Assembly: GCA_034667685.1 (NCBI GenBank)
Contig: JAXDQU010000034.1
Location: forward strand, 1 to 64,000
From: Thermoplasmata archaeon
GTDB lineage: Archaea; Thermoplasmatota; SW-10-69-26; JACQPN01; JAJPHT01
Reading direction: 5' to 3'
Length of the DNA stretch: 64,000 nt
Shown: positions 56 to 64,000 of the stretch, piece after piece
How the letters are laid out: every line of letters begins with the position of its first letter
How positions within the stretch are numbered: position 1 is the stretch's first letter
Program-made: the position numbers and the translations under genes
The notes under the pieces: model-generated
Databases searched by the model: none
Told to the model about the DNA's origin: nothing
Seen by the model: only the letters and a program-made list of their open reading frames with translations

Positions 56-1288
56 CTATGGCTCGCGGAGCACGACGTCGTGGCTGGGCCCCTGGGGTCC
101 GGGGTCGGACTCGACGGCGACGACGAGCTTGCCGCGCGCGTCCACGAGCGCCGTGAAGAAGTCGCCCAGCAGGCGGTCGCGCTGCGCGCCGCCGCCCGCG
201 CCCACCGGGGGCGAGACGGGGCCGACGTGGACCGCGCCGGAGAGGGCCCGCGGCGCGCCCTGCGCCGCCCCGCGCGCGTCGACCCGCGCGGCCATCGGCG
301 TCCAGCGCGCGTGGTCCGCGCCCGGCGCGTCGCCCGAGGCCAACGCCGCGGGCGCGCTCACGTAGACGATCCACGCCGTGCCGCCGCGCGCCGCGGGCCA
401 GGGCTCCAGCGCGCTCTCGCCCGTGGACGAGACGCGGACCGGCGCGCTCCACGAGCGGCCATCCGCGCTCGTGCTATCAAACACGGCGAGGCGCCCATCG
501 ACGGCCTCGCTCCACGCAACGAGCAGGCCCGCGTCGGTGGCCGCCAGCGCGGCGTACATGTTGTTGACGGGCGCGTTGCCGGCCCGCACGAGCGCCTGCG
601 TCCACGTGGCGCCCTTGTCGCGCGTCGTCGCCACGCACACGCCGTTCCCGTCGCGGCACACGTAGGGCATCGCGATCCCGCCGTTCCACGCCACGAGGTT
701 GCCGTTGGTGAGGCCCGGCTCGTGCTGCGCGTCCCATGCGTTGCCCTGCGGCAGGAACGTGAGCCCATTGTCGTCGCTGCGCGAGGCCTGGCTGACCTGC
801 GTGTTGCCCTGCACGCGCGAGACGAGGTACGCGCGCCCCGCGTCATCCACGCCCGCCCACTCGCGGTCGAAGTAATACTGGGCCGAGCCCACCGGCGAGG
901 TCTGCCACGTCTGCCCGCCGTCGCGCGACACCGACACGACGTTGCCCGTCGTGCCAAGCTGCGTCACGTAGAGCGTGCCCGGCCCCGCCGCGAGGTCCAC
1001 CTCACCGCCGCCCTGCGCGTTGACGCGCGAGACGCTGAACGACGCGCCGCGGTCGTGGCTCGCCCACACGCGCGGGCCGCCGCCTTCCGGGTCCTGCGCC
1101 GCCACCACGAGCGATCCGTCGCCCGCCTCGCGGATCACCGGCTCGGGGCCGCCCACGCCCAGGTCCGTGAGCAGGAAGGCCGGCGCCGCGCTGCCCGTGG
1201 GCGTCGTCGCGTGGCTCCCGCCTCCTCCCGTGCTGGACGCGCAGCCGGCGAGCAGAAGGACCAGGACGAGCAGCGGTGCGGTGCGCAC
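56..1288 (-). CDS. Lipoprotein, BNR/Asp-box (sialidase-like) beta-propeller
   Basis: Lipobox LLAGC; several Asp boxes (SHDRGASF, SRDGGQTW, SDDNGLTF, TRDKGATW, SADGRSW); GTG start chosen by signal peptide. Confidence 0.8.
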   Translation of the reverse strand: MRTAPLLVLVLLLAGCASSTGGGGSHATTPTGSAAPAFLLTDLGVGGPEPVIREAGDGSLVVAAQDPEGGGPRVWASHDRGASFSVSRVNAQGGGEVDLAAGPGTLYVTQLGTTGNVVSVSRDGGQTWQTSPVGSAQYYFDREWAGVDDAGRAYLVSRVQGNTQVSQASRSDDNGLTFLPQGNAWDAQHEPGLTNGNLVAWNGGIAMPYVCRDGNGVCVATTRDKGATWTQALVRAGNAPVNNMYAALAATDAGLLVAWSEAVDGRLAVFDSTSADGRSWSAPVRVSSTGESALEPWPAARGGTAWIVYVSAPAALASGDAPGADHARWTPMAARVDARGAAQGAPRALSGAVHVGPVSPPVGAGGGAQRDRLLGDFFTALVDARGKLVVAVESDPGPQGPSHDVVLREP

Positions 1289-1345
1289 GCGCCGCGCAGG
1301 GAGGCGACGGGGCATGAAGGGCGCGGGCGGCTCGGCCCGGGTTTT

Positions 1346-1421
1346 GCTTGGCCGCCAACACGCGAACACGCCAACACCCGAGCGATGGCGTGTTGGCGTG
1401 TTCGCGTGTTGGCGGCCAAGC
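1346..1421. repeat. Intergenic palindrome, family A (CCAACACG 8-mer units)
   Basis: 32-bp perfect inverted arms at 1346-1377 and 1390-1421 between divergent genes. Confidence 0.9.
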
Positions 1422-1485
1422 GAAGCGCCGATCCGAACGCCCAACCCTCGCAAGATCGATAGCCACCCTCGGGTCTGCGCGCCGC

Positions 1486-3129
1486 GTGCGCCCCGCGCTC
1501 CTCGTCCTCGCGCTGCTCGTGCTGCCGGGCTGCGCCGCGCCCGCGCGGCACGAGGCCCCGCCGCCGCAGCTCTGGCTGGTCGGGCTCGACGGACGCTGGC
1601 CCGTGCCCAAGGCGAGCCTGACGGGGCTGCTCACCGACGCCTCGTGGCCCCGGCCCGCGGGCGCCGCGCTCTTCGGCGGCGGCGTGGCCACGATGGGCGG
1701 CCGGAGCGCCGCGCTCGACTTCGCCGCGCTCGACGAAGGCGCCGCGCGCGCCGTCGACCCCAACGGCACGCTCGACCCGCCGGCCCCGGGCGAGGTCGCG
1801 CTGGAGGAGGGCTGGGCGCGCGAGCACGGGCTGGGCGTCGGCGATGCGCTGCGCCTGCGCGTCTCGGCCTTCCCGCGGCCGCTCGTCACCGCGGCCTACG
1901 AGATGGAGCGCATCCGCGCCTGCGGCAAGCTCGACGCGCCGATCTGCTTCGCGCCGGGCGCGTCCAACCAGACGACGCTGCGCATCGCGGTCCCGCCCGA
2001 CTCGCGCGACCTCGGCCTCCTGCCCGAAGGCGTGGAGCTCGGCCCCAACGCGCTCCCCGCCTGGTGGAACGGCACGATCGACGGCCCGGGCGGCGAGCAC
2101 CTGGACTTCCACGCGGCGCTCGACGCGCAGGGCCACGTCACGCCCGGCCAGATCGCGGGGCCCGTCGCGCCGGGCAACTGGACCGTCGCGTTCCGCCTGG
2201 AGAGCGCGCGCGCCGCGATCAATGGCGGAGCCGCGGGCATCGTGCGCCTCCGCGAGCCCGGCTACGGGTGGTTCGACGACCGCCTGGCGGCCGATCCCGA
2301 AGGCGCCAACCAGACGCGCACGCTGCTGTCCTGGGGCGAGGACCACGCGCTGGACCTCCGCGTCGCGCGCCTCGTCGACCGCCCGATCCCCGCGGCGGAG
2401 GCGCTGCTATCACCGGCGGACGCGCGCGCGCTCCTGGGGGCGCGGCCGGGCGAGGCCACCGCGCTCGTGGTGAACGCCTCCATCACGGGCCTCGCCGCCC
2501 TCTCCGACGCGCGCAACGCCACGAGCGACGCGGCCGCCGCCGCCACGCGCGCCCGGCCGCTCCCCGACGGGCCCGGGCCGGCCGATCCGCAAGGCGGCGC
2601 GCTCCTCTTCCGCGCGCCCCTCGACGTGGACCTCGCGGGCCTGCCGCGCGTCGCCGGCGCGGGAACGCCCAGCCTCGCCGTCGCGCTGGAGACGCCCGTG
2701 GGCGAGAACGCGTCCGTCGAGGGGCGCGGCATCCCCGCGCTCCGCGTGCTCGCGTTCGGCGGGCCCGGCGCGCCCCCCTTCCGCATGCCGGCCGACGCGC
2801 GCTGGCCCACGACGCAGGCCGCGCTGGAGAACGTCACGCGCTCGCGAACGCTCGTCCTCGCCACGCCCGACTGGTCGCCCGGCGGCATCCAGGCCTCGCG
2901 CCTCGTGCTGGGCGACTCGCGCGTGGGCCGCGTCACCGTCGCGGTCACGTCGGTCGAGGGCGGTCCGGCCGCCGTCGCGTGGGCGAGCCCCTCGCTCATC
3001 GCCGGCGCGGGCAAGCCGCTGGGCGCCGTGGTCCTGCTCCCGCTCCTTCCAGGCGCGGACGCGGGCGAGGTCGCGGCGCGGGCGCAGGCGGCGTGGGGCG
3101 CGAGGGGATTGGCGATCGACGAACCTTGA
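1486..3129 (+). CDS. Lipoprotein with MacB-type extracytoplasmic-core-like segments
   Basis: Lipobox LPGC; GEVALEEGWAREHGLGVGDALRL and LLSPADARALLG resemble the MacB/FtsX periplasmic core; no C-terminal TM helices. Confidence 0.55.
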   Translation: MRPALLVLALLVLPGCAAPARHEAPPPQLWLVGLDGRWPVPKASLTGLLTDASWPRPAGAALFGGGVATMGGRSAALDFAALDEGAARAVDPNGTLDPPAPGEVALEEGWAREHGLGVGDALRLRVSAFPRPLVTAAYEMERIRACGKLDAPICFAPGASNQTTLRIAVPPDSRDLGLLPEGVELGPNALPAWWNGTIDGPGGEHLDFHAALDAQGHVTPGQIAGPVAPGNWTVAFRLESARAAINGGAAGIVRLREPGYGWFDDRLAADPEGANQTRTLLSWGEDHALDLRVARLVDRPIPAAEALLSPADARALLGARPGEATALVVNASITGLAALSDARNATSDAAAAATRARPLPDGPGPADPQGGALLFRAPLDVDLAGLPRVAGAGTPSLAVALETPVGENASVEGRGIPALRVLAFGGPGAPPFRMPADARWPTTQAALENVTRSRTLVLATPDWSPGGIQASRLVLGDSRVGRVTVAVTSVEGGPAAVAWASPSLIAGAGKPLGAVVLLPLLPGADAGEVAARAQAAWGARGLAIDEP

Positions 3130-3156
3130 TGCGGCGGACGCCCCCATCCTGCGCCG

Positions 3157-3621
3157 ATGGTGGACGCGACCCTCGTCGGCTATGGCCTCGTCTCGCTGGG
3201 CGTGGTCATGTTCATCCTCGAGGCGCTCGTGCCGGGCTTCTTCCTGGCCGTGCCCGCGACGATCCTCGTGATCCTGGGCGCCTTCGCGCTCCTCGCGCCC
3301 GACTTCAACCTCTTCGCGCAGTACGCGCCCTTCGTCGCGATCGTCGCGGGCGTCCCCGCCACGGCGGTCACGATCTACCTCTACCGGCGCCTCGCGCCGC
3401 CCACGCACGGGCCCACGACGCGCAGCGGCGACTCGATGGTCGGGCTCGAAGGGCTCGTGACCGTGCCCGTGACGCACGACGCGCCGCGCGGCAAGGTGAA
3501 GATCCACCAGGAGACGTGGAGCGCCATCACGCGCGGGCCCGACATCGCGCCCAAGACCAGGGTGCGCGTCGCCGCGGTCGAGGGCATCATCCTCGTCGTG
3601 GAGCCGGTGCACCACGCCTGA
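3157..3621 (+). CDS. nfeD: NfeD-family membrane protein (short form, C-terminal OB fold)
   Basis: Three TM segments, ILEALVPGFF, GKVKIHQETWSA, VRVAAVEGIILVVEP; directly upstream of an SPFH gene. Confidence 0.85.
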   Translation: MVDATLVGYGLVSLGVVMFILEALVPGFFLAVPATILVILGAFALLAPDFNLFAQYAPFVAIVAGVPATAVTIYLYRRLAPPTHGPTTRSGDSMVGLEGLVTVPVTHDAPRGKVKIHQETWSAITRGPDIAPKTRVRVAAVEGIILVVEPVHHA

Positions 3622-3632
3622 TATCACATTGC

Positions 3633-3789: not shown

Positions 3790-4881
3790 ATGGCCGACCC
3801 GATCTTCGCGGTGCTCGCCGTCCTCATCGTCGTGGCGTTCCTGGTGCTCGCGCTCAGCGGCATCCGCATCGTGCAGCCCTGGGAGCAGGGGCTCTGGATC
3901 GTGCTGGGCAAGTTCCGCGGCAAGCTGAACCCGGGCTTCAACTGGGTCTACCCGCTCGTCTCGCAGGTGGTGAAGCTCGACCTGCGCACGCAGGTGCTCG
4001 AAGTGCCGCGCCAGGAGGTCATCACCAAGGACAACTCGCCCACCAACGTGGACGCCATCGTCTACCTGCGCGTGCTGACGCCCGACAAGGCGTTCTTCGA
4101 GGTGACGGACTACCGCCACGCGACGATCGCGCTCGCGCAGACGACGCTGCGTAGCATCATCGGCGACATGGACCTCGACGAGGTGCTCTACAACCGCGAG
4201 CGCATCAACACGCGCCTTCGTGACATCTTGGACGAAGCGACCTCGAACTGGGGCGTCAAGGTCGAGAGCGTCGAGATCCGCGAGGTCGATCCGGTCGGCC
4301 GCGTCAAGCAGGCCATGGAGGAGCAGACCTCCGCCGAGCGTGAGCGGCGCGCCGCGATCCTTCGCGCGGACGGCGAGAAGCGCGCCAAGATCCTCACCGC
4401 GGAAGGCGAGAAGCGCAGCCGCATCCTCCAAGCCGAAGGCGTGCGCCAGGCCAAGGTGCTCGAGGCCGAAGGCACGCGCGTCGCGCAGATCCTCGAGCGG
4501 CAAGGCGAGGCGCAGGGCCTCCGCATCCTCGCGCTGGGCGGCGCCACGCTCGACCAGAAGAGCCTCACCGTGCTATCATTGGACGCGTTGAAGACGCTGG
4601 GCGAGGGCCAGGCCACGAAGATCGTGCTCCCCTTCGAGGTCACGACGCTGCTGAAGAGCGCCAGCGAGTTCGTGAAGGGCGGCGCGCAGGAGCCGCCGCA
4701 CCAGCCCAGCGACGTGCGGCAGCTCGAGACCATCATCGGCGAGGCCGACAAGGTGCTCGGCCGCATCCCGAGCCCCGACGAATTGACCAAGGAGCTCTCC
4801 GTCATCGAGAAGGAATTGGAGGACGAGACGAAGAGCGCCGAGGAGCTGGCGAACAGCAAGGGAAAGCCGACCGGCGCGTGA
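3790..4881 (+). CDS. SPFH/band 7 (stomatin/QmcA-like) protein
   Basis: N-terminal TM, QEVITKDN, AQTTLRSIIG, WGVKVESVEI, AERERRA coiled-coil repeats. Confidence 0.92.
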   Translation: MADPIFAVLAVLIVVAFLVLALSGIRIVQPWEQGLWIVLGKFRGKLNPGFNWVYPLVSQVVKLDLRTQVLEVPRQEVITKDNSPTNVDAIVYLRVLTPDKAFFEVTDYRHATIALAQTTLRSIIGDMDLDEVLYNRERINTRLRDILDEATSNWGVKVESVEIREVDPVGRVKQAMEEQTSAERERRAAILRADGEKRAKILTAEGEKRSRILQAEGVRQAKVLEAEGTRVAQILERQGEAQGLRILALGGATLDQKSLTVLSLDALKTLGEGQATKIVLPFEVTTLLKSASEFVKGGAQEPPHQPSDVRQLETIIGEADKVLGRIPSPDELTKELSVIEKELEDETKSAEELANSKGKPTGA

Positions 4882-5082: not shown

Positions 5083-6018
5083 ATGGGCCTGGGATTCCTG
5101 GATTCCAACGTGGTCCAAGGCATCCTGCTCGCCGACGTGTGGGCGGGCATCGTGCTCCTCTTCGCGGGCTACTTCGTGAAGGGGCCGCGCAGCCAGCTCC
5201 TGCGCATCGCGGGCTGGATCGTCTTCGCGCTCTACTGGCCCTTCCAGGCGCCCCACTTCTTCTGGGGCGACGAGCCCGACCCGATCAACGGCTGGTTCAC
5301 GCTCGCGGGCCCGCTCTTCCTGCTCTGGATCGCGTACCACGAGTGGAAGTCGTACAAGTGGGGCGAGGACCCCGCCGCGCTGCGCTGGTTCGCCGGCGCC
5401 TCGGCCGTCAGCGCCGCGACGTACTTCGTCATCTTCCAGATCCCCGGCGTGCAGCTCTGGATCATGAAGAGCACCGCCGAGCAGAGCGCCTGGCTCTACA
5501 ACGTCCTCTTCAGCCACGCCAGCGGCCACACGGCCTACGTGCCCGCCGACAGCCTGACCGCCGACGGCTATGATATCAGGCTCACGGACTCCAGCGATCC
5601 CTACGCCGTCACCGTCGTGCTCGCGTGCACCGCCGTCCAGAGCATGATGATCTTCGTGGGCGCCATCGCGTGCCTCGTCGCGTCGCGCCGCCGCAAGTGG
5701 GGCGCGTACCTGATGACGGTCCCCACGATCTACTTCCTCAACCTCTTCCGCAACGCGGGCATCGTCTACGGCTACCACGACCTCCAGTGGTCGATGTTCG
5801 GGCTGGAGCCCTTCGAGTGGATGCACAGCTACGTGGGCAAGATCGGCTCGCTGCTCGCGCTGATCGTCATCGCGCTGGGCGTCTTCACGACACTGCCCGA
5901 GCTGCACAGCAACATCCTCGACCTGTTCGACCTGAGGAAGCGCCGCGCGCCCGGCTTCTTCAAGCAGCCGCCGCCCAAGGAGCCCACGAGCGCGCCCGCG
6001 CCCGAGTCCTCCTCCTAA
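5083..6018 (+). CDS. artA: Archaeosortase A
   Basis: Multi-TM; catalytic-type motifs VVLACTAVQSM (Cys), LNLFRN (Arg), MHSYVGKIGSL, TLPEL. Confidence 0.85.
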   Translation: MGLGFLDSNVVQGILLADVWAGIVLLFAGYFVKGPRSQLLRIAGWIVFALYWPFQAPHFFWGDEPDPINGWFTLAGPLFLLWIAYHEWKSYKWGEDPAALRWFAGASAVSAATYFVIFQIPGVQLWIMKSTAEQSAWLYNVLFSHASGHTAYVPADSLTADGYDIRLTDSSDPYAVTVVLACTAVQSMMIFVGAIACLVASRRRKWGAYLMTVPTIYFLNLFRNAGIVYGYHDLQWSMFGLEPFEWMHSYVGKIGSLLALIVIALGVFTTLPELHSNILDLFDLRKRRAPGFFKQPPPKEPTSAPAPESSS

Positions 6019-11023: not shown

Positions 11024-11422
11024 CTACTTCGAGGGTGATCGTCCGATCTTCGCGAGCCAGCGCGCGCGGTCGAAGTGGACCTCGTTCACCACGATCTCGC
11101 GCCCGCGCAGGAGCACGAGGTCCATGCCCTTCAGCGCCAGCGCCTCGCCATCCGGCATCGGGACGCTCGCGCGCCACGTCACGCTGAAGCCGCCGGCGAT
11201 CGGGTCGAGGCGGTCGCGCGTCCAGCGCATCGCGGGGTTGGCGCCCAGCAGCCGGGCCAGGTAGGCCCGCAGCGCCGCGCGGCCGCGCAGCCCGTCGGGG
11301 CGCGCCGGGTCCACGTACACGCAGTCCTCCGCGTAGAACGCGGCGAGCCGCTCCGCGTCGGTGCCGGTCCACGCGGCGAACCAGCCGTCGCAGTACGCCT
11401 CCAGCGCGGCCTGGTCGATGAT
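11024..11422 (-). CDS. SnoaL/NTF2-like protein
   Basis: WFAAWTGTDAERLAAFYAEDCVYVDP..GLRGRAALRAY; no in-frame ATG/GTG upstream of this segment, so an ATC start is inferred. Confidence 0.7.
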   Translation of the reverse strand: MIDQAALEAYCDGWFAAWTGTDAERLAAFYAEDCVYVDPARPDGLRGRAALRAYLARLLGANPAMRWTRDRLDPIAGGFSVTWRASVPMPDGEALALKGMDLVLLRGREIVVNEVHFDRARWLAKIGRSPSK

Positions 11423-11423
11423 A

Positions 11424-12065
11424 TCACGCCTCCGCGGCGTTCCACTCGCGGAAGAATTGGTCGAGGAACGCGCGCAGGAACGCGGTCCTTTCCTCGCCCA
11501 GCTTGCGGCCGGAGGGCGTGTTGAAGTCGGCCTGCAGGCGCAGCAGCTTGTCGTAGAAGTGCTGCACCGTCGTGCCGTGCCGGCCCGAGACGTACACGTC
11601 GGGCACGTCGGTGGGGGCGCCGTCCCAGAGCACGCGTCCCTTGAGGCCGCCGAACGAGAACGCGCGCGCGATGCCGATGGCGCCGATCGCTTCCAGCTTG
11701 TCCGCGTCGCCCACGACCTGCGCCTCCAGGCTCATGGCGCGCTTGCCGCCCGGCGCGAACGACTTGTCCTTGTGGCGCTCCACGGCTTCCATCACGCGCG
11801 CCGCGAACGGCTCGGGGGCGCCCAAGGCCGCGAGGTGCGCGCGCGCCGCGCCCAGCGGGTCCTTCTCGCCCGCGCGGTCGAGGTCGTGCAGCCACGCCGC
11901 GCACGCGCACACGTCCTCGTCCGCGCCTTCGAGCCGCGCGAGCAGCACGGCGTTGCGCGCCACGCGCTCCACGTGGAAGACGTCGTGGCACGGATCGTAG
12001 GGCGACATCGTGCCTTCGGAGAAGAGCGGCGCGACGCGCGCGCGCAGGGCGGCGGCCAGGGGCAT
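11424..12065 (-). CDS. HD-domain phosphohydrolase
   Basis: CHDVFHVERV, AAWLHD, DADKLEAIGAIGIARAF, HFYDKLL. Confidence 0.9.
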   Translation of the reverse strand: MPLAAALRARVAPLFSEGTMSPYDPCHDVFHVERVARNAVLLARLEGADEDVCACAAWLHDLDRAGEKDPLGAARAHLAALGAPEPFAARVMEAVERHKDKSFAPGGKRAMSLEAQVVGDADKLEAIGAIGIARAFSFGGLKGRVLWDGAPTDVPDVYVSGRHGTTVQHFYDKLLRLQADFNTPSGRKLGEERTAFLRAFLDQFFREWNAAEA

Positions 12066-13379: not shown

Positions 13380-14765
13380 ATGCCCGAGGATGCGGTCGTG
13401 TCGTACGTGCGCGCGAACGAGCAGCGCAATCTCCAGCAGCTTGTCGACCTGCTGCGGATCCCCAGCGTGTCGGCGCAGCCGGCCAAGCACGGGAAGGACG
13501 TGGAGCGGTGCGCGCACTTCGTGGCGGACGCGCTGCGCGAGGCCGGGATGGAGAACGTGCAGCTCGTCCCCACCCCAGGCAACCCGATCGTCTACGCGGA
13601 CTGGCTGCACGCGGGCGCGGGCGCCCCGACGGTGCTCGTGTACGGCCACTACGACGTGCAGCCTCCGGAGCCGCTTGACCTGTGGACGTCGCCCCCCTTC
13701 GAGCCCACGGTGCGCGACGGGAAGCTCTTCGCGCGCGGCGCCACGGACGACAAGGGTCAGATGTATGCACACGTGAAGGCCGTCGAGGCGCACCTGAAGA
13801 CGGGCGGCAAGCTCCCGGTCAACGTGAAGTTCTTCATCGAGGGCGAGGAGGAGGTCGGCAGCAAGAACCTCGACCCGGCCATCGAGAAGTGGCGCGAGAA
13901 GCTGGCGTGCGACGTCGTGCTCGTCTCCGACACGGCGATGAAGGGCGAGGGGCAGCCCGCGATCACGTACTCGCTGCGCGGCCTGATCTACTTCCAGGTT
14001 GATATCATCGGCCCGAAGAGCGACCTGCACTCGGGCACGTGGGGCGGCTCGCTGGCGAACCCGAACGAGGCGCTCGTGCAGGCGCTCGCGAAGATGAAGG
14101 ACGCCAAGACGGGCAAGGTCAAGATCCCCGGCTTCTACGACGGCATCAAGATCACCAAGGACGACCGCGCGGCCGTGAAGAAGAGCGGCTACGCCGATTC
14201 GTATTACAAGAAGGAGATGGCGATCAAGGCGCTCTGGGGCGAGAAGGGATGGAGCGCGGCGGAGCGCACGAGCATCCGCCCCACCTTCGAGGTCAACGGC
14301 ATCTACGGCGGCTACCAGGGCGACGGCGCGAAGACCGTCATCCCCGCGCACGCGCACGCCAAGGTCTCCATGCGCCTCGTGGGCGGCCAGAACCCCGAGA
14401 AGATCACCAAGAGCTTCGAGAAATATCTGAAGTCCGTCGTCCTTCCTGGCGTTGAGATCAAGGTCACGCGCCTCTCGGCCGGCTACGGCGCGAAGGTGCC
14501 GCTCGACGACCCCGCGATGAAGGCCGCGACGAAGGCGCTCGCCGACACGTTCGGCAAGAAGCCCGTCTACCTCGCCGAGGGCGGGAGCATCCCGGTCGTC
14601 GCGTCGTTCCAGAAGCTCCTGGGCGCCAACACGATCCTCATGGGCTTCGGCCTCCACGACGAGAACCTGCACGCGCCCAACGAGCACATCCGCGTGGTCA
14701 ACTACCACAAGGGAATCGAGGCGAGCGCCCGGTTCCTCGCGGAAGTGGCGAAGGTCGATCGCTGA
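13380..14765 (+). CDS. M20 family dipeptidase
   Basis: YGHYDVQP, ARGATDDKG, IEGEEEVGS, DLHSG, HAPNE. Confidence 0.93.
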   Translation: MPEDAVVSYVRANEQRNLQQLVDLLRIPSVSAQPAKHGKDVERCAHFVADALREAGMENVQLVPTPGNPIVYADWLHAGAGAPTVLVYGHYDVQPPEPLDLWTSPPFEPTVRDGKLFARGATDDKGQMYAHVKAVEAHLKTGGKLPVNVKFFIEGEEEVGSKNLDPAIEKWREKLACDVVLVSDTAMKGEGQPAITYSLRGLIYFQVDIIGPKSDLHSGTWGGSLANPNEALVQALAKMKDAKTGKVKIPGFYDGIKITKDDRAAVKKSGYADSYYKKEMAIKALWGEKGWSAAERTSIRPTFEVNGIYGGYQGDGAKTVIPAHAHAKVSMRLVGGQNPEKITKSFEKYLKSVVLPGVEIKVTRLSAGYGAKVPLDDPAMKAATKALADTFGKKPVYLAEGGSIPVVASFQKLLGANTILMGFGLHDENLHAPNEHIRVVNYHKGIEASARFLAEVAKVDR

Positions 14766-15853: not shown

Positions 15854-17002
15854 GTGGAGACGCTCCGCCTCGCGCACGTGGCGCCCTACCTCCACCCGCA
15901 CGTGGGCGGCGTGGAGAGCCACGTCGAGGGCGTCTGCGCGGAGCTGGCGCGCCGCGGCCATGATATCACCGTCGTCACCTCGCGTCTCCCCGACACGCCC
16001 GAGCGCGAGGAGCGCGACGGTTACAAGATCCTGCGCGCGCCGATGCCCGCGAACCTCTTCACGACGCCCATCACGCCGCGCCTGGGCCGCGCGCTCGACG
16101 AGGCCGCGCCGCGCCTCGTGCACGCCCACTCGCCCCCACCCGTGTCGAGCTGGTACGCGTCGCGCTGGTGCAGGCGCCGCGGCGTGCCCTTCGCGCTGAC
16201 CTACCACTGCGACCTGGAGATTCCCGTCCCGGGCGGGGGCGTCATCGTCGAGGTCTACCGGCGCACCCTGGGGCGCGCGACGGTGCGGCGGGCCGACGCG
16301 CTCGTGGCGACGACGACGACCTACGCGCAGACGAGCCGCTCGCTCTGGTCGCGCGACGACGTGGAGGTCGTGCCCAACGCGGTGGACGCCACGCGCTTCT
16401 CTCCGGACGTCGACGGCGCCGCCATCCGCGCGCGGCACGGCCTGGGCGACGCGCCCGTCGCGCTCTTCGTGGGGCGCCTGACGCACCACAAGGGCGTCGA
16501 GGAGCTGGTGCGCGCCGCCGCGCTCACCGGCCCGCAGGTGAAGCACCTGATCGTGGGCGACGGGCCCAAGCGCGCGGCGTTCGAGGCGATGGCCCGCCAG
16601 GCGGCGCCGGGGCGCATCGTCTTCGCGGGGCGCGTGAGCGCGGAGGAGCTGCCCGCGTACTACCGCGCGGCGGACGTGGGCGTGCTCCCCTCCACCTCGC
16701 GCCTGGAGGCGTTCGGCATCGCGGCGCTCGAATGCATGGCGAGCGGGCGCCCGGTGGTCGTGAGCCGCATGCCCGGCGTCGAGGAGGTCATCGAGCCCGA
16801 CGTCACGGGCCTGCTCGCCGAGCCGCTCGACGCCGAGGACCTCGCCGCGCAGATCCGCGCGCTCGCGCTGGACCCCGAGCGGGCGCGCGCGATGGGCAAG
16901 GCCGCGCGCGAGCGCGTGCTGGAGCGCTTCACGCTGCCGCGCGTCGTCGACCGGCTCGAAGCGATCTATCGGGCCCTTCAGACGGGACAGAAGCCTTCGT
17001 AG
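15854..17002 (+). CDS. GT4 family glycosyltransferase
   Basis: GGVESHV, VVPNAVD, FVGRLTHHKG, EAFGIAALECMASGRPVV. Confidence 0.92.
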   Translation: METLRLAHVAPYLHPHVGGVESHVEGVCAELARRGHDITVVTSRLPDTPEREERDGYKILRAPMPANLFTTPITPRLGRALDEAAPRLVHAHSPPPVSSWYASRWCRRRGVPFALTYHCDLEIPVPGGGVIVEVYRRTLGRATVRRADALVATTTTYAQTSRSLWSRDDVEVVPNAVDATRFSPDVDGAAIRARHGLGDAPVALFVGRLTHHKGVEELVRAAALTGPQVKHLIVGDGPKRAAFEAMARQAAPGRIVFAGRVSAEELPAYYRAADVGVLPSTSRLEAFGIAALECMASGRPVVVSRMPGVEEVIEPDVTGLLAEPLDAEDLAAQIRALALDPERARAMGKAARERVLERFTLPRVVDRLEAIYRALQTGQKPS

Positions 17003-33564: not shown

Positions 33565-34558
33565 CGGAGCGCAGCAGCTTCCGGTGCGCCGTCCCCAGCG
33601 CGACGTCGTCAGGCCGCCGCCATTCGCCAGCCTCGCCGTCCGTCTCGACGGCGTACGCTTCCATCTTCCAGCGGCGGTGCGTGAAGACGTGCTCGCCGCG
33701 CCGCTCGGGGCGCTCGGCCACGCGCGCGCGGCCATCGGTGAGGCGCTCCACGTGCTCGCGCAGCAGCTCGCGAGCATCCGCGCCGCGCGGCACCTCGACC
33801 CAGGGCAGCCCCCACGTGCCGGCGAGGAGGCCGGCGTCGCGCTTCTCCAGGAGCATCGCGCCTCCGCGCTTGGAGAGGGCGAGCGCCACGCGCATCTCGC
33901 GGGGCGCGGCGGCGGGCGCCTTCACCGGGTATCGCGTGGCCTGCGCGCGGCCCAGGCACGCCTCGGCGAGCGGGCACGCTTCGCAGCGGGGCGCCTTGGG
34001 CGTACAGACGGTGGCACCCAATTCCATGAGCGCCTCGTTGAACGCGCCGGGCGCGTCGCGCGGCTGCGCGGCCAGGACCCACGCCTCGGCCTTGCGGCGC
34101 GTGGCGGGCAGCGTGATATCATCCTCGGAGGCGGTGAGGCGCGACCAGACGCGCAGGACGTTGCCGTCCACCGCCGGCGCGGGGAGGCCGAAGGCGAGGC
34201 TGGCGACGGCGCCCGCGGTGTAGGGGCCCATGCCGGGGATCTCGCGCAGCGCGGCGAGGTCGGCGGGAAGCTCTCCCTGGTGGCGCTCGACGACGCGCCG
34301 CGCGCCGCTTTGCAGCAGCCGCGCGCGCCGGTAGTAGCCGAGCCCTTCCCACGCCTTCATGAGGTCGTCCTCGCGCGCCGCGGCGAGGCTTTTGATATCG
34401 GGGAAGCGCGCGAGGAACGGCTCGTAGTAGCGCAGGACCGTCTCGACGCGCGTCTGCTGGAGCATGACCTCGCTCACCCAGACGCGGTAGGGATCGCGCG
34501 GCTCCTGGCGCCAGGGGAGGCCGCGCTTGCTCGCGGCGAACCATGACAGCAGGCTCAG
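33542..34558 (-). CDS. mutY: A/G-specific adenine glycosylase
   Basis: LPWR, VWVSEVMLQQT, GLGYY, PGMGPYTA, VDGNV, CTPKAPRCEACPLAEAC; CTG start overlapping the upstream TGA is inferred. Confidence 0.92.
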   Translation of the reverse strand: MSLLSWFAASKRGLPWRQEPRDPYRVWVSEVMLQQTRVETVLRYYEPFLARFPDIKSLAAAREDDLMKAWEGLGYYRRARLLQSGARRVVERHQGELPADLAALREIPGMGPYTAGAVASLAFGLPAPAVDGNVLRVWSRLTASEDDITLPATRRKAEAWVLAAQPRDAPGAFNEALMELGATVCTPKAPRCEACPLAEACLGRAQATRYPVKAPAAAPREMRVALALSKRGGAMLLEKRDAGLLAGTWGLPWVEVPRGADARELLREHVERLTDGRARVAERPERRGEHVFTHRRWKMEAYAVETDGEAGEWRRPDDVALGTAHRKLLRSATPARSA

Positions 34559-40198: not shown

Positions 40199-41101
40199 TC
40201 AAGGATCGTGGCTGGATAGGATATCCTGGATGCGGCGGAGAAACGCCTCCGGCGCGTCCTCCTGCCAGAAGTGGCCCGCGTCGGGCGCCACGTGCTCGAC
40301 GCTCTCCACGGCGAGGCCGCTCTCGCGCCAGCGCTCGGCCAGGCGCGGCGGCATCACGGGATCGCGGTCGGCCCAGAGCACGTGCACCGGCGCGTGGGAG
40401 AGGAGCGGGAAGCGCGCCTCGGCCTCGCGCAGCGTCGCCGCCTCGGGGTGGTCGGGCCCGTCGGGCACCATCTGCACGAAGCGCGCCGCCGCGACGCGCC
40501 CGCCTTTTTCGCGCATGGGCCAGGCGTAGGCGCGGCGAGCCTCGCGCGAGAGCGGCCTGCGCACGCCGCCGCGCATCGCGGTCGCGCGCACGAGGTCGAG
40601 CCGCACGCCCAATTGATAGCCCAGGGGCGAGGCGAAGAGCGCGTGCCAGCGCGTGAACGCGCGCTTGCGTTTGGGCGCGAAGGCCACCGTGTTGCAGACG
40701 AGGATGCGCTTCACGCGCTGCGGCTCGCGCGTCGCCCACGTCATGCCGATGGGCCCGCCCCAGTCGTGGAGCACGAGCGTCGCGTCGCGCACGTCGAGCG
40801 CCGCGAGGACCGCGCGCAGGTTCTCCGCGTGGCGCTCCAGCGAGTAGTAGCGCGGGTCGGTGGGCTTCTCCGAGAGGCCGAAGCCGGCGTGGTCGAGCAC
40901 GACGACGCGGTGCCCCGCCGCCACGAGCGGCCCCACGAGCTTGCGGTAGAGGTAGCTCCACGTCGGGTTGCCGTGCAACAGCACGAGGGGCGCCGCGTCG
41001 CGCGGGCCCGCGTCGACGACCGAGAGCCGCACGCCCTCGACGGTGATATCACGGCGCGGCCAGGGCATCGCGGCGGCGATCTCCGGCGGGAGCTTGCGCA
41101 T
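40199..41101 (-). CDS. Haloalkane dehalogenase-like alpha/beta hydrolase
   Basis: LHGNPTWSYLYR, GFGLS, LHDWGG (Asp nucleophile), AGHFWQED. Confidence 0.88.
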   Translation of the reverse strand: MRKLPPEIAAAMPWPRRDITVEGVRLSVVDAGPRDAAPLVLLHGNPTWSYLYRKLVGPLVAAGHRVVVLDHAGFGLSEKPTDPRYYSLERHAENLRAVLAALDVRDATLVLHDWGGPIGMTWATREPQRVKRILVCNTVAFAPKRKRAFTRWHALFASPLGYQLGVRLDLVRATAMRGGVRRPLSREARRAYAWPMREKGGRVAAARFVQMVPDGPDHPEAATLREAEARFPLLSHAPVHVLWADRDPVMPPRLAERWRESGLAVESVEHVAPDAGHFWQEDAPEAFLRRIQDILSSHDP

Positions 41102-50729: not shown

Positions 50730-51830
50730 GTGAGCTTCCGCCCGCTCGAAGGCATCCGCGTCCTCGACCTCACGCGCCTGCTGCCGGGGCCCTACCTCTC
50801 GCAGTGCCTGACGGACCTGGGCGCGGACGTCGTGAAGCTGGAGGAGCCGGGCGCGGGCGACCCGGCGCGCCTGATCGAGGGCTCCTTCGCGGCGGTGAAC
50901 CGCGGCAAGCGCAGCATGGCGATGGACCTGAAGGCGCGCGGCGCGTCCGAGGCGCTGCTGCGCATGCTCCCCTCCTTCGACGCGCTGCTCGAGTCGTTCC
51001 GGCCCGGCGTCATGGCGCGGCTGGGCCTCGCCGACGCGGAGCTGGCGCGCGCGAACCCGCGCCTGGTGCGCGTGAGCCTCGTGGGCTACGGGCCGGGGCC
51101 GCTGCGCGACGCCGTGGGACATGATATCAACTACGAGGCGGTGGCCGGCGTGCTCGCCGCGCAGGGCGACCTGCGCGCGCCGGTCCTCTCGGCCGTGCAG
51201 GTGGCGGACGTGGGCGGCGCGCTCTACGCGCTGGCGGCCACGATGGGCGCGCTGCTGGAGCGCGAGCGCACCGGGCGCGGGCGCCACGTCGAGGTCGCGC
51301 TGGCAGACGCGGCGCTGGCGATGAACGTCCTGAACGCGCAGCGCGGCGCGGGCGAGGCGCCGGCGCGCGGCGGCGGGGACCTGACCGGCGGCATCCCGAG
51401 CTATCGGCTCTACCGCTGCCGCGACGGGCGCTTCCTCGCGCTGGGATGCCTGGAGCCGAGGTTCTGGGCGCGCTTCTGCGAGGCGGTGGGCAAGGCCGAG
51501 CTCGCGCCGCTGCACGCCGAGCGCTCGCGCGGCGCGCACCTGGAGGTCGAGGCGCTCTTCGCGTCGCGCACCTCGCACGAATGGGAGGCGCTCCTGGGCA
51601 AGGCCGGCGTGCCCGCGACGCTCGTCGTCGAGCCGCGCGAGACCGCCCCGCTCTTCCCGCGCTTCGAGGGGGCGCCCGGGCCCGGCTCGCCGCTTACGCA
51701 TCGCCCCAGCCACGGCAAGCCCCCCGCGCTGGGCGAGCACACCGACGAGGTGCTCCGCGAGGCCGGCTTCCGCGACGAGGAGATCGCGGCGCTGCGCGAG
51801 GCGGGCGCCCTGGGCCCCCAAGGAGCCTAG
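50730..51830 (+). CDS. CaiB/BaiF family III CoA-transferase
   Basis: PLEGIRVLDL..LPGP, DLGADVVK, NRGKRS, ESFRPG, GHDINY, PALGEHT. Confidence 0.92.
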   Translation: MSFRPLEGIRVLDLTRLLPGPYLSQCLTDLGADVVKLEEPGAGDPARLIEGSFAAVNRGKRSMAMDLKARGASEALLRMLPSFDALLESFRPGVMARLGLADAELARANPRLVRVSLVGYGPGPLRDAVGHDINYEAVAGVLAAQGDLRAPVLSAVQVADVGGALYALAATMGALLERERTGRGRHVEVALADAALAMNVLNAQRGAGEAPARGGGDLTGGIPSYRLYRCRDGRFLALGCLEPRFWARFCEAVGKAELAPLHAERSRGAHLEVEALFASRTSHEWEALLGKAGVPATLVVEPRETAPLFPRFEGAPGPGSPLTHRPSHGKPPALGEHTDEVLREAGFRDEEIAALREAGALGPQGA

Positions 51831-53250: not shown

Positions 53251-54351
53251 TCATCCTGACTTGGGATCGAGCAGCACCACTTTGCCCTTCGTCGTTACGT
53301 TCACGGGCCCGCCGATCCCGAGCACGGCGCGCGCCTCGGGCGTGTGCAGCCCCTTGACGCGCGCGAGGTCGGCGCTCGACAATTCGGACACCGCACGCGC
53401 GATCCGCTTGCCTTCGCTTTCGACGTCCACGACGCTCTCGACGTCGAAGGTCCCCTCGACGTCCACGACGCCCGTGGGGAGGAGGTGCTTGCCGGCGGCC
53501 AGCGCGCGTGCCGCGCCCGCGTCCACGCGCACGACGCCCGCGGGGCGCGCGAGGAGGAGCCAGCGCCGGGCGCCGCTGGCGCGGGAGCGCGGCGCGAAGC
53601 GCGTGCCGATCTTCTCCCCCGCGACGAGGCGTGATAGCACGCGCGCCTCGCGCCCCGCGGCGATGACGACGGCGCACCCGTTCTCCATCGCGAGGGCGGC
53701 CGCGTCGAGCTTGCTGCCCATCCCGCCGCGGCCGCCGCTGCTGGTCTTCGCGCCGGCCATGGCGCGCACCTTGGCGTCCACGTCCTCGACGAGGGGGACG
53801 AGCGTGGCGCCGGGCTCGGAGGGCGGCTTGGTGTAGAGCCCTGCGACGTCGCTGAGGATCACGAGCAGGTCGGCCTCCATCTTGGTCGCCACGAGCGCGC
53901 TGAGACGATCGTTGTCGCCGAACCCGGCGTCGATCTCCTGGATGCTCACCGTGTCGTTCTCGTTGACGACGGGGACGACGCCCATCTCCAGGATCTTGCG
54001 CATCGCCTCGCGCATGTGGAGATAGCTTTCCCGCGCGGCGAACGTGTGGTAGGTCAGGAGCACCTGCGCGACGTGCTGGCGGCGCCGCCCGAACGCCGCG
54101 GCCCAGTCCTGCATCAGGCGCGCCTGGCCCACCGCGGCGCAGACCTGCCGCACGCGCACGTCGCGCGGCTTCTCCTTGATGCCCAGGATGTGGCGTCCCG
54201 TGCCGATGGCGCCGCTGGTGACGAGGATCACGTCGTGCCCCGCGTCGCGCAGGTCGCAGATCTCGTCCGCCAGCGCCGCCATGTACCACGGGTCCGGCCG
54301 GTCGAGCGGCCCGTTGAGCGTGTTCGTGCCGACCTTCACCACGATCCGCAT
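53251..54351 (-). CDS. proB: Glutamate 5-kinase with PUA domain
   Basis: IVVKVGT, VTSGAI, AAVGQ, NENDTV, FGDND, GGMGSK. Confidence 0.95.
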   Translation of the reverse strand: MRIVVKVGTNTLNGPLDRPDPWYMAALADEICDLRDAGHDVILVTSGAIGTGRHILGIKEKPRDVRVRQVCAAVGQARLMQDWAAAFGRRRQHVAQVLLTYHTFAARESYLHMREAMRKILEMGVVPVVNENDTVSIQEIDAGFGDNDRLSALVATKMEADLLVILSDVAGLYTKPPSEPGATLVPLVEDVDAKVRAMAGAKTSSGGRGGMGSKLDAAALAMENGCAVVIAAGREARVLSRLVAGEKIGTRFAPRSRASGARRWLLLARPAGVVRVDAGAARALAAGKHLLPTGVVDVEGTFDVESVVDVESEGKRIARAVSELSSADLARVKGLHTPEARAVLGIGGPVNVTTKGKVVLLDPKSG

Positions 54352-54365
54352 CGTCTTGCCCTCCG

Positions 54366-60279: not shown

Positions 60280-60289
60280 TGCCTCTCGC

Positions 60290-60583: not shown

Positions 60584-60628
60584 GGCGAAGCGACACGTCC
60601 TTGGCGGGGCGCGCGCCATGCCCGGCGC

Positions 60629-61393
60629 GTGACGAGCTTGCGCGTCGCCGCGCTCCAGATGCCGCACGGCCCGACGCTCGAAGGCAACCTGGCGAAGGCG
60701 CGCGCCATGGTCGCCCAGGCGCGCGAGGCGGGCGCCGCGCTGGCGCTGCTCCCCGAGTACTGGTTCGCCACGTTCGCCGGTCCCGTCGAGCCCGCGCCGC
60801 TGCGCGCCTTCTTCGCCGACGCCAGCCGTGATATCATCGTGGCGGGGAACCTGATCGAGGGCGGGCGCAACCTGGGCGTCGTCTACGAGCGCGGCGCGCC
60901 GCTCCTGGAGCAGCCCAAGATCCACCCGATGCCGCGCGAGGCCGCCAACGGCATCGTGGGGGGCGAGACGTGGCGCGTCGCGCCGGTCGCGGGCGTGCCC
61001 ACGGGCATGCTCGTGTGCGCCGACGTGCTCTATCCCGAGGCGGCGCGCATCGTGCAGCTCCTGGGCGCGCAGCTCCTGCTCAACCCGGTCATGAGCCCGT
61101 ACCGCGAGGTGGACGACACGAAGGAGGCGCGCGACGCCATCTTCGTGGCCCGCGCGTACGACGCCGGCGCGTTTCTCGTGAAGGCGGGCGGGTTCCGTCG
61201 GGGGGAGCCGGCCGTCGCGGGCCGCTCGCTCGTCACCGCGCCGTGGGGCGTCCTCGCTCGCTATCAAAACGAGCTGGCGGAGGAGGTGCTCGTCGTGGAC
61301 CTGGACCTCGCGCGGCTGGATCGGTTCCGGCGGCACCAGGCGACGTTTCCGGCGCGCAGGCCCTCAACGTACCAGGAGCTCGTGCGAGGGTAG
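60629..61393 (+). CDS. Carbon-nitrogen hydrolase (nitrilase superfamily)
   Basis: LLPEYW, KIH, VCAD, APWG. Confidence 0.88.
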   Translation: MTSLRVAALQMPHGPTLEGNLAKARAMVAQAREAGAALALLPEYWFATFAGPVEPAPLRAFFADASRDIIVAGNLIEGGRNLGVVYERGAPLLEQPKIHPMPREAANGIVGGETWRVAPVAGVPTGMLVCADVLYPEAARIVQLLGAQLLLNPVMSPYREVDDTKEARDAIFVARAYDAGAFLVKAGGFRRGEPAVAGRSLVTAPWGVLARYQNELAEEVLVVDLDLARLDRFRRHQATFPARRPSTYQELVRG

Positions 61394-62050: not shown

Positions 62051-62120
62051 GCCGGCGCAGTCCGCCTAACCCCTCAAAAACCCTTGCAACCACCGGGTTG
62101 CCGGTGTTGCTGCGCGGGGC

Positions 62121-62462
62121 TCAGAGCCGGTCGTACTTGTCCGCCCTTCCGCGCGCCTTCTCGACGGGGTACTTCGCGCGGTTCTGGACGAGCTTCGCGG
62201 CGAGGGCCTCGGGGAGGTCGAGCCCGGTCTTGTCGGCGAGGAGCATCGCGTACATCACGACGTCGGCGACTTCTTCGGCGACGCGCTGGCGCTCCTCCGG
62301 CGTGAGAGCGGCGGCCGGGCTGCGCCACTGGAAGATCTCGAGGAGCTCGCCCGCCTCGACGGCCAGCGACAGGGCGAGGTCCTTCGGATCGTGGAAGGCG
62401 TCCCAGGCGCGCTCGTCCACGAAGGCGCGCAGCTCGCGCCGGACGTCCTCGAAGGTGGGCAT
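62121..62462 (-). CDS. MazG-like nucleotide pyrophosphohydrolase
   Basis: ERAWDAFHDPKDLA..EAGELLE, EEVADV, NRAKYP. Confidence 0.9.
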   Translation of the reverse strand: MPTFEDVRRELRAFVDERAWDAFHDPKDLALSLAVEAGELLEIFQWRSPAAALTPEERQRVAEEVADVVMYAMLLADKTGLDLPEALAAKLVQNRAKYPVEKARGRADKYDRL

Positions 62463-62474
62463 GGGCGGCGCAAC

Positions 62475-62579
62475 TCAGAGGCCCAGCTTGAGCATGACGA
62501 AGAGCGTCAGCTGCAGCAGCAGGAACCCGCCCAGCAGGCCGCCCACGATGGTGAGCGTCCACGCGAGCCAGGCCTTCAG
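62475..62579 (-). CDS. Putative 34-aa single-TM microprotein
   Basis: LKAWLAWTLTIVGGLLGGFLLLQLTLFVMLKLGL fills the gap between the UbiD-like and MazG-like genes; CTG start overlapping TGA is inferred. Confidence 0.45.
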   Translation of the reverse strand: MKAWLAWTLTIVGGLLGGFLLLQLTLFVMLKLGL

Positions 62580-64000
62580 GGGCCCACCCCGTACTCGGGC
62601 CAGCGCTTGTCCACGAGCGCCTTCGTGGCCTCGTCCATGCGGATGATGGGCGGCCAGGGGCGCGCGTCCTCGTCGACGCGCTTGACCGTGCCGTCGACGC
62701 CGACGCGGACGCCCTCGCGCAGCACGTCGCGCGCCGGGTCGAGGTTGGCGCTCGCGTGGAAGAGCGCCGCGCGCGCGTCGCGCACGTCCACGTCCGCATC
62801 CAGCGCCACGAGCGCAACGGCTTCGGGCACGCCGGCGCCCCAAAGGGCGCGCATCGCGTCGCGCGCCCGCCCGCGAGGACCCTTGCGGATCGACGCGAGC
62901 GCGAGGCGCGGCGAGACCTGGCGCGCGTCCACGAGGTCGGGCACCTTCGCCCGGAGCGCGTCGAGCGGCGGGAGCGGGCCGCCCGCGGGCGTGGCGCGGG
63001 CGGGTTCGGCGCCGATCGGCGTCGTGAGGTCGATGCCGAGGTGGCTGCCCAGGTCGGGGCGCGGCGCCGCGTGGTCGAGCGTGTCCGTGGGCACCTGGTC
63101 GACGATCAGCAGGTCGCGCGGCGGGTCGAAACGCGCGAAGGCCGCGAGCAGCGCCGCAGGGTCGTGGACGTCCACGTCCTCGTCGACGATCACGAGCGCC
63201 TTCTCCAGCGAGATCATGCCCGCGCCCCAGAGGCTCATCATCGCCTTGCGTGCGTGGCCGGGATATCGTTTCCGGATGCTGACGATCATCAGGTTGTGGA
63301 ACGCGGCCTCGACGGGCATGCTCCAGTCCACGACCTCGGGCACCTGGAAGCGCGCCAGCTCCAGGAACATGCGCTCCGTGGCCTTGCCCATCGGGCCGTC
63401 CTCCTGGGGCGGAATGCCCACGACCGTCGTCGGATAGATCGCGTCGCGCCGGCGCGTGACCGCCGTGACGTGGAAGACCGGGAACTCGTCCGCGAGCGAG
63501 TAATAGCCGGTGTGGTCGCCGAAGGGGCCTTCGGTGCGCAAGGGCTCCGCGGGATCGACGTACCCTTCGAGCACGATCTCCGCGTCGGCGGGGACTTCGA
63601 GGTCCACCGTCTTGCACTTGACCATGCGCATGCGCTCGCGGCGGATGTAGCCGCAGAGCATCACCTCGTCGAAGCCCGGCGGAAGCGGCGCCGTCGCGCC
63701 ATACGTCAGCGCCGGGTCGCCGCCCAGCGCCACCGCCACGGGAAGCCTGACACCCAACTTCTTCGCCTTGCGGAAGTGCTCCGCGCCGTGCTTGTGCGTC
63801 TGCCAATGCATGCCCGTCTCGCGCGGCCCGAAGACCTGCATCCGGTACATGCCCATGTTGCGCTCGCCCGTTTCCGGATCGCGCGTGTAGACCTGCGGCA
63901 GCGTGATGAACGGCCCCGCGTCGAGCGGCCAGCACGTGAGCACCGGCAGCCGCGTGAGATCAACGGCGTCGCCCGTCTCGACGATCTGCTGGCACGCCGC
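62576..64000 (-). CDS. UbiD-family decarboxylase (menaquinone-pathway type), 5'-truncated by the window edge
   Basis: WPLDAGPFIT, NMGMYRMQ, EGPFGDHTGYY, PPQED, DTLDH; frame open to the window end. Confidence 0.9.
   Translation of the reverse strand, partial: AACQQIVETGDAVDLTRLPVLTCWPLDAGPFITLPQVYTRDPETGERNMGMYRMQVFGPRETGMHWQTHKHGAEHFRKAKKLGVRLPVAVALGGDPALTYGATAPLPPGFDEVMLCGYIRRERMRMVKCKTVDLEVPADAEIVLEGYVDPAEPLRTEGPFGDHTGYYSLADEFPVFHVTAVTRRRDAIYPTTVVGIPPQEDGPMGKATERMFLELARFQVPEVVDWSMPVEAAFHNLMIVSIRKRYPGHARKAMMSLWGAGMISLEKALVIVDEDVDVHDPAALLAAFARFDPPRDLLIVDQVPTDTLDHAAPRPDLGSHLGIDLTTPIGAEPARATPAGGPLPPLDALRAKVPDLVDARQVSPRLALASIRKGPRGRARDAMRALWGAGVPEAVALVALDADVDVRDARAALFHASANLDPARDVLREGVRVGVDGTVKRVDEDARPWPPIIRMDEATKALVDKRWPEYGVGP

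Follow-up and report, generated by a model that had tools for sequence, protein, structure and literature searches.

The uptake signal sequences (USS) of the Pasteurellaceae and the DNA uptake sequences (DUS) of the Neisseriaceae are non-palindromic words repeated in hundreds to thousands of copies; they need type IV pilus/ComEC uptake, and molecular drive suffices to account for how they spread, with no need for a benefit to the cell. Chi is asymmetric, skewed with the direction of replication, made of common codons and in need of RecBCD/AddAB, and in E. coli very-short-patch repair by Dcm/Vsr shapes word counts, an effect that is few-fold and directed towards G:C. We know of no uptake sequence from an archaeon. 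Here we describe a palindromic octamer, TGATATCA, in an uncultured soil archaeon of the Thermoplasmatota. It was first noticed in a 64-kb window (the whole stretch of DNA shown above, positions 1 to 64,000 of contig C34, JAXDQU010000034.1) of assembly GCA_034667685.1, below called G000, and its closest described counterparts are HIP1 (GCGATCGC), a highly iterated palindrome (HIP), and the alternate HIPs of cyanobacteria.

As excerpts of two studies portray them (PMC4390886, PMC5861425), these are 8-base palindromes in tens- to hundreds-fold excess (15- to 300-fold in the excerpt of PMC5861425), found in genes and spacers, accompanied by enriched one-base variants, specific to a lineage, conserved between species at some sites, and unsettled as to reader and purpose. 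TGATATCA is like them in these respects, in the conservation of sites perhaps less clearly so, and its own excess (94-fold over base composition, 192-fold over an order-2 Markov model and ~54-fold over shuffled codons) falls within that range. It differs from HIP1 in that the host is an archaeon, in being an AT-rich word of rare codons in a genome of 71% GC whereas HIP1 is GC-rich, in its restriction to one genus rather than a phylum, in the lack of a matching methyltransferase identifiable in our searches, and in its density of one site per 4.9 kb, lower than in some cyanobacteria, for which more than one HIP1 per gene is reported.

With USS and DUS, the word shares its abundance across close relatives, its tolerance of reading frames and the protein changes that it leaves at tolerant positions, but it is palindromic, and searches of the genus detected neither ComEC nor DprA. 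Like Chi, it is a lineage-specific word of 8 bases, at about one per 5 kb and mainly in genes; unlike Chi, it cannot be skewed, being a palindrome, and RecC (PF04257) was not found in G000. Dcm/Vsr provides the parallel of a repair bias at a recognition site that alters the frequency of a related word, whereas the effect here is 50- to 500-fold and towards A:T, and no Vsr was found in G000, where sites are most numerous. We conclude that TGATATCA, together with the tolerated forms TGCTATCA/TGATAGCA and weaker end variants, is very probably a HIP1-type highly iterated palindrome confined to one genus. HIP1 was thus the right analogue to draw, as the initial annotation of the window did from the sequence alone. 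That annotation also knew of no archaeal description, and our literature searches on the word, on HIPs in archaea and on archaeal uptake sequences found none, the supplements of the HIP1 papers being outside their scope; a survey of archaeal restriction-modification does not mention GATATC.

Results

An octamer in large excess throughout the genome

The window, whose GC content is 0.69-0.76 in 4-kb bins, holds nine copies of TGATATCA where 0.03 are expected, all exact and at the positions first listed (Table 1), and none of 100 dinucleotide shuffles reached nine. There are 22 copies of GATATC where 2.73 +/- 1.66 are expected: nine in the octamer, five in a 7-mer (TGATATC or GATATCA) and eight as the hexamer alone. 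The earlier count of about 22 therefore stands, although its core coordinates lay one base to the left of the hexamer and it left out the cores at 40220 and 44597. The variants reported with it are in place as well, namely the four copies of TGCTATCA/TGATAGCA in Table 1, TGATAACA at 23040 and TGTTATCA at 24427.

The assembly as a whole (3,481,428 bases in 124 contigs, 71.1% GC, ~99% complete, with a full-length match of 1498 bits to the archaeal Rfam small-subunit rRNA model) carries 378 copies of TGATATCA, against 4.0 expected by base composition and 2.0 by the order-2 Markov model. On both measures it ranks first among 8-mers with at least 50 copies, and the runner-up palindromic 8-mer is enriched 7.7-fold. 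Together with 329 copies of the one-off form (TGCTATCA/TGATAGCA), this gives 707 sites when both strands are counted. Sites occur on all 55 contigs of at least 20 kb, and the enrichment extends to the other four species of the genus (below), in agreement with the initial proposal of a genome-wide signal at the level of DNA.

Protein sequence and average codon usage do not reproduce the excess. When synonymous codons were permuted within each of the 3339 genes (84% of G000 is coding), with amino acids preserved, 40 shuffles yielded 5.6 +/- 2.4 copies of TGATATCA in genes (maximum 13) against 304 observed; the corresponding values were 233 vs 7.7 for TGCTATCA and 67 vs 0.7 for TGATAGCA, and a control word, AAGAAGAA, stood at 83 vs 80.7. 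When all 65,536 8-mers were scored against 30 such shuffles, TGATATCA obtained the highest score, and the word and its overlaps made up the top of the list. A dicodon null (a first-order codon model) takes up part of the signal already, yet it still falls ~30-fold short, with 10.3 copies of the main in-frame form expected and 295 observed. The dicodon CTA-TCA, through which the one-off form is written, occurs 243 times where 0.32 are expected, TCA being the next codon after 41.5% of all CTA codons in G000. The excess thus persists under both codon-level nulls, the checks first proposed for it, and it is found across the whole genome.

The word and its variants

The third position of the word is A in 378 copies, C in 173 (TGCTATCA; its reverse complement TGATAGCA has 156), G in 3 and T in 5. 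TGATAACA and TGTTATCA have 4 and 5 copies in the genome, against ~4 expected, and TGGTATCA has 3. Because T and G at position 3 are not enriched, the family is TGMTATCA (TG[A/C]TATCA) and not TGNTATCA, as had initially been thought. The outer positions accept C/G in part (CGATATCA and TGATATCG, 82 copies each), tolerance at position 1 follows the order T>A>C>G, and the double variant TGCTAGCA has 3 copies.

Within genes, the bare hexamer GATATC, without the flanking T or A, shows no excess over the codon-shuffle null (84 vs ~80), which means that the unit read is at least a 7-mer. Beyond the 8 bases no conservation of the flanks was found, and half-sites held apart (TGAT-N1..8-ATCA) are not enriched, with 0-38 copies against 378 when they abut; the word is not part of a longer repeat. 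Its positions are also coupled: in Asp-Ile contexts followed by A, 295 have the full TGATATCA, 34 have T at position 1 alone, 64 have GAT alone and 230 have neither, so positions 1 and 4 depend on each other. The signal acts on the word as a whole, with a tolerance that resembles that of half-sites.

Placement in genes and along the genome

Most of the 378 palindromic copies (295) lie in genes in the frame nnT GAT ATC Ann, 9 are read nTG ATA TCA, 39 run over gene ends and 35 lie between genes. Inside genes frame 0 is barred because it reads TGA, and this same reading is put to use at gene ends: in 32 of the 39 gene-end sites the TGA of the word is the called stop codon, 22 have TGATATCATG, a stop-start junction, and in 12 cases the palindrome supplies the stop codon of one gene together with the first base of the next ATG. 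TGATATCATG as such has 69 copies in G000, both strands counted.

In sense orientation the one-off form is read in frames 0 and 1, in antisense orientation in frame 2. It occupies 198/1079 permissive contexts as nTG CTA TCA in sense, 31/33 as TGC TAT CAn, and 66/486 in antisense as nnT GAT AGC Ann, a two-step occupancy near the sense value. The similar sense and antisense occupancy, the use of all legal frames and the extragenic sites together indicate that the word acts in duplex DNA and not in RNA or peptide.

Locally, spacing is Poisson (variance/mean 0.98 over 283 bins of 10 kb, coefficient of variation of inter-site distances 1.0), which lends no support to a regular arrangement of the kind that the suggested nucleoid-organiser sites might have, and no strong positional bias was found along genes. 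A role in promoters was considered and rejected: the usual box upstream of start codons is GCTTATC- or GGCTAAG-like, and just 11 of the 46 palindromes in intergenic upstream regions lie where this box does, 22-29 bases before the start. The 1818 gene starts show AT peaks at -34, -28 to -26 and -10, with GCTTATC and GGCTAAG-like words enriched at -40 to -15, a pattern that fits leaderless transcripts and a TATA-like box.

A strong directional force

Wherever a single silent or conservative change would complete the word, a strong directional force pushes the sequence towards it. Tyr is encoded by TAT in 326/432 positions where this completes the word and in 62/1014 elsewhere. Before CA, the preference for TAT follows the preceding codon (31/32 after TGC, 100/118 after AGC, 83/107 after CGC and 58/118 after GGC, against 2-10% after unrelated codons). 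Cheap contexts, those one silent change away, are occupied to 75-97%, and the word is present in 295/635 contexts of the type X-D-I-[A..]. Each completing step shifts the odds 15- to about 500-fold (ln 2.7-6.2), for the most part some 50-500-fold, which corresponds to a scaled strength of about 4-6.

The force reaches into the proteins. A codon that starts with A follows Asp-Ile in 38.1% of cases, against 16.5% after any other X-Ile and 17-19% after Asp-Val or Asp-Leu, an excess that amounts to several hundred additional Asp-Ile-(Thr/Ile/Lys/Asn/Ser/Arg/Met) tripeptides. The initial annotation had spoken of a signal under selection; the strong directional force is borne out, while selection on sites and molecular drive are not separable by these data.

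Restriction to one genus and turnover of sites

Comparisons were made over 21 species genomes of the class, five of which (G000 to G004) form the genus, a group of uncultured soil Thermoplasmatota. The palindrome has 378 (G000), 210, 141, 111 and 53 copies in these five species and 0-9 in the 16 others. The one-off form varies with it (329, 151, 229, 72 and 63 in the genus, 1-13 elsewhere in the class), so that both forms together total 116 to 707 in the genus and never exceed 16 in the remaining species of the class. A distant genome, G030, has 215 copies but was not counted as a second case, since its ratio to a reversed-word control (~13) resembles the ratios seen in the phylum at lower GC.

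In a 365-kb sample of G007, from a sister genus, with 71.1% GC and a like codon bias, permissive contexts are occupied in 0/37, 0/91 and 0/30 cases, TAT is used in 1/13 completing contexts, and A follows Asp-Ile in 17.6%. The lack of these anomalies at equal GC rules out a general compositional cause. G003, the closest species (~78-83% DNA identity), shows the same pattern as G000 in a 1.07-Mb sample (TAT in 79/108 completing contexts, the main form in 36/144), with a lower two-step occupancy.

Site turnover was followed between G000 and G003 in 656 reciprocal-best ortholog pairs (75% amino-acid identity, 192,053 aligned codons). Where the context is permissive in both species, occupancy is shared beyond independence, with odds ratios of 5.1, 5.7 and 3.6 for three types of context (Mantel-Haenszel pooled 4.7). 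Where the context persists, the sites of G003 are found again in G000 in 12/15, 34/43 and 4/9 cases. In the other direction the fractions are 12/30, 34/38 and 4/23; G003 lacks the majority of the G000 sites, and synonymous positions between these species are close to saturation. At 41 of 71 main-form sites of G000, G003 has other amino acids. The word is still being added in the G000 species.

Candidate readers

Methyltransferases, repair enzymes and competence proteins were searched for candidates that could read the word. A D12 methyltransferase, the class of EcoRV and Dam, was found in none of the other four genomes of the genus, and the one weak match in G000 lies inside a DUF1156 gene. 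This gene (G000:C118:34269-37436, L135:770-3937, minus strand) encodes a DUF1156 and methyltransferase-like protein of 1055 residues in a stretch of atypical codon usage. As a query it matched in G000 only, with no match in G007 or in any of the other four species; it was rejected as the reader and is probably a recently acquired gene of a defence island. Two orphan-looking methyltransferases of G000, of the N6/N4 and C5 types, also look unlikely as readers, their orthologs having 58-72% identity inside and outside the genus alike; their neighbours carry no informative domains.

Vsr has two copies in G003, one in G002 and one weak, sub-threshold match in G004, but none in G000 or G001, and was likewise discarded. 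In G003 (C8:39295-40792 and C27:116672-118609) and G002 (C307:1051-2583), though not in G000, genes for C5 methyltransferases adjoin the Vsr genes. MutS_V gave weak matches only (27-42 bits), which are not specific to the genus, and the mismatch endonuclease NucS is present.

Sites in the window and gains in G000

Eleven of the 13 window sites lie inside genes and the other two (3619 and 11419) supply a TGA stop, so that most sites are genic, as first stated, and the rare-codon spellings then pointed out (TAT GAT ATC, GTT GAT ATC and CTA TCA) are indeed used (Table 1). CTA makes up 0.6% of Leu codons in G000 and TCA 1.1% of Ser codons. At all five window sites for which at least two other species could be aligned, no relative has the complete word, which indicates that these sites were gained in the G000 lineage, some of them with a change from Leu or Val to Ile. 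Contigs from a second soil sequencing run are identical across six window sites, so that an error in a single assembly cannot explain the sites; related strains in two soil runs have G at 4578 and differ there from the window.

Table 1. Copies of the word and of its one-off form in the window, with their reading in the gene and the aligned sequence in other species of the genus.
Word	Position	Strand	Gene	Reading in the gene	Relatives
TGCTATCA	472..479	+	56-1288(-)	antisense to the gene, which reads TTT GAT AGC ACG (F-D-S-T)	
TGCTATCA	2405..2412	+	1486-3129(+)	CTG CTA TCA (L-L-S), two rare codons	
TGATATCA	3619..3626	.	3157-3621(+)	TGA is the stop codon	
TGCTATCA	4571..4578	+	3790-4881(+)	GTG CTA TCA	TCCTCTCG (G004)
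TGATATCA	5571..5578	.	5083-6018(+)	TAT GAT ATC AGG (Y-D-I-R)	
TGATATCA	11419..11426	.	11424-12065(-)	minus-strand TGA is the stop codon	
TGATATCA	14000..14007	.	13380-14765(+), M20 peptidase	GTT GAT ATC ATC	CGACGTCA (G003, G004), CGACATCA (G001), GGACGTGA (G002); gain in G000, Val to Ile
TGATATCA	15961..15968	.	15854-17002(+)	CAT GAT ATC ACC	CGACGTGG (G003), CGAGGTGG (G001, G004); gain in G000, several amino-acid changes
TGATATCA	34114..34121	.	33542-34582(-)	GAT GAT ATC ACG	CGATATCA (G003), CGACGTCG (G001)
TGATATCA	41044..41051	.	40199-41101(-)	CGT GAT ATC ACC	CGACGCGC (G003), GCACGTCG (G004)
TGATATCA	51122..51129	.	50730-51830(+)	CAT GAT ATC AAC	CGACCTCA (H-D-L-N) in all four; gain in G000, Leu to Ile
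TGATAGCA on + (= TGCTATCA on -)	53632..53639	-	53251-54369(-)	GTG CTA TCA	
TGATATCA	60829..60836	.	60629-61393(+)	CGT GAT ATC ATC	

The M20 peptidase that carries the site at 14000 has its nearest relatives outside the genus in Ignavibacteria (48-54% identity) and not in archaea, which suggests, on sequence identity, that the gene was acquired from bacteria. Contig JAJPHT010000034.1 (C8 of G003) has an M20 peptidase 91% identical to it and is syntenic with the window; its record is titled 'Proteobacteria bacterium', an evident mislabel.

Other words in G000

Several other words have unusual counts in G000. Homopolymer runs of C/G are strongly avoided in genes (CCCCCCCC 2 vs 468 in codon shuffles), and this avoidance is probably tied to the use of GAT for Asp in 24% of cases before Pro and of TAT for Tyr in 24% before CC. 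Palindromes of 6 bases that contain CTAG, and some others, are severely depleted (ACTAGT 8 vs 192 expected, GCTAGC 79 vs 1161, CCTAGG 87 vs 1161, GGTACC 133 vs 1161), possibly owing to restriction systems or to an avoidance of CTAG as known elsewhere. A second word of rare codons, AGGAATTG (mostly AAG/GAG GAA TTG), has 58 copies, 45 in genes in sense against 1.8 in codon shuffles, and is spread unlike the palindrome: 62 copies in G003, 41 in G002, 19 in G007, 6 in G001 and 4 in G004. ACACAGAG, CCTCTGTG, CTGAGGCT and TTCCGATT stand at 9-31 times their order-4 Markov expectation.

Discussion

What writes the word is a separate question from what the word is. We tentatively favour, at a probability of about 0.4, an explanation by molecular drive. 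The source of the force would be a genus-specific, probably dimeric protein that reads the sequence, with DNA exchange or recombinational repair as its most likely setting; DNA that bears the word would be passed on preferentially, so that the word would gain ground as a 'self tag'. This is the usual account of how uptake sequences spread, and a recent proposal extends it to HIP1, which is reported to aid transformation in the excerpts of two accounts (PMC13756078; bioRxiv 10.1101/2024.09.10.611283). We favour drive because the random placement of sites, the near-saturation of cheap contexts, the rewritten amino acids and the restriction to a genus match traits of uptake sequences.

Several points weigh against this explanation. 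No reader was found among the methyltransferase, repair and competence families searched; ComEC (PF03772) was found in 0 of 21 genomes across the class and DprA (PF02481) in 0 of 5 within the genus, though archaea may have an import route of another type; and the uptake sequences known so far are non-palindromic. The sharing of sites between G000 and G003 above chance fits selection on sites as well as it fits persistent drive. Moreover, one line of evidence for a mutational process had to be given up. The rarity of TGCTATCA in the frame nnT GCT ATC Ann (3/990), next to its frequent use in other frames, was first taken to show that sites arise along a mutational path and not by selection on the finished word, but GCT before ATC is all but absent throughout (1/4240), completing contexts have it in 6/756 cases overall and 3/28 after T, and the odds ratios in these contexts (34 to about 500) are in the same range as elsewhere. 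Finally, genes were called with a codon-usage caller of our own and not with a standard tool, a caveat on all gene calls.

The first alternative, which we regard as somewhat less likely, is that each site is selected as a docking place for a chromosome-structuring or other DNA-binding protein, the word being retained for the many copies that the cell requires; Xu, Lawrence and Durand read HIP1 as selected sites, conserved and periodic according to the excerpt of PMC5861425. A palindrome suits a dimeric binder, and sites are shared between G000 and G003 beyond independence (pooled odds ratio 4.7), with those of G003 mostly kept in G000. This conservation does not discriminate between the two explanations, because continuing drive also preserves sites. 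Docking places are harder to reconcile with local spacing that is Poisson and shows no regularity, with a filling of cheap contexts (75-97%) well above what evenly distributed sites could plausibly require, and with a copy number that varies 7-fold within one genus.

A second alternative is a ratchet of the kind proposed by Elhai, in which a methyltransferase marks the word and methylation-guided, biased mismatch correction completes near-matches. In its favour, the deviants lie mainly at the first and last positions (CGATATCA, TGATATCG) and at positions 3 and 6, like Elhai's pattern for HIP1 in the excerpt of PMC4390886, G000 has orphan-looking N6/N4 and C5 methyltransferases, and NucS is present. 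We nevertheless find it doubtful. Searches of the genus beyond G000 turned up no D12 methyltransferase, and the weak D12 match in G000 is in a gene that the other four genomes lack; the two conserved methyltransferases do not track the word, with the same 58-72% identity in and out of the genus; Vsr was not found in G000 or G001, and the matches to MutS_V are weak and not genus-specific. In addition, the bare GATATC hexamer is not enriched.

It is very improbable that the word is a by-product of an extreme codon usage that varies with context and of the avoidance of TpA, CTAG and C-runs. G000 does have such habits, since codons that end in T scarcely occur before A, C/G runs are strongly depleted and AGGAATTG is enriched, but G007, of the same GC content and kind of codon bias, lacks both the word and the codon anomalies, and the word itself holds TpA and rare codons and therefore goes against the prevailing biases. 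The coupling of positions 1 and 4, the sites in spacers and over stop codons and the ~30-fold shortfall of the dicodon null argue against it as well. An action of the word in RNA or peptide (an Asp-Ile or Leu-Ser motif, or a translational pause) is hardly credible even though one frame, encoding Asp-Ile, accounts for 295/378 copies, for nnT GAT ATC Ann is the cheapest legal frame (frame 0 being a stop and frame 1 needing ATA), the one-off form uses several frames and antisense, 74/378 copies lie outside genes or across gene ends, and the Asp-Ile dipeptide itself is not in excess (observed/expected 0.90).

The function of HIP1, and the choice between selection and drive, have been debated for some thirty years, in cyanobacteria only, and the same kind of word has here arisen independently and recently in an archaeon. 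We see an even chance that this first HIP of an archaeon, recent in one genus, still being written, and without a Dam-class methyltransferase, canonical MutS/MutL or ComEC/DprA, marks HIP words as a convergent outcome of some sequence-reading system. Its confinement to one genus, its 7-fold variation in copy number and the availability of sister genera of equal GC without the word make the question testable, as a natural experiment: the gene for the reader would be expected in all five species of the genus but not in its sister genera, and a simple comparison of gene content could reveal it. The force can be measured directly because the word is built against the codon bias of its own genome. 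It also means that a DNA word can reshape proteins, here through a more than two-fold excess of A-starting codons after Asp-Ile, and codon or dipeptide statistics on such genomes should allow for this effect.

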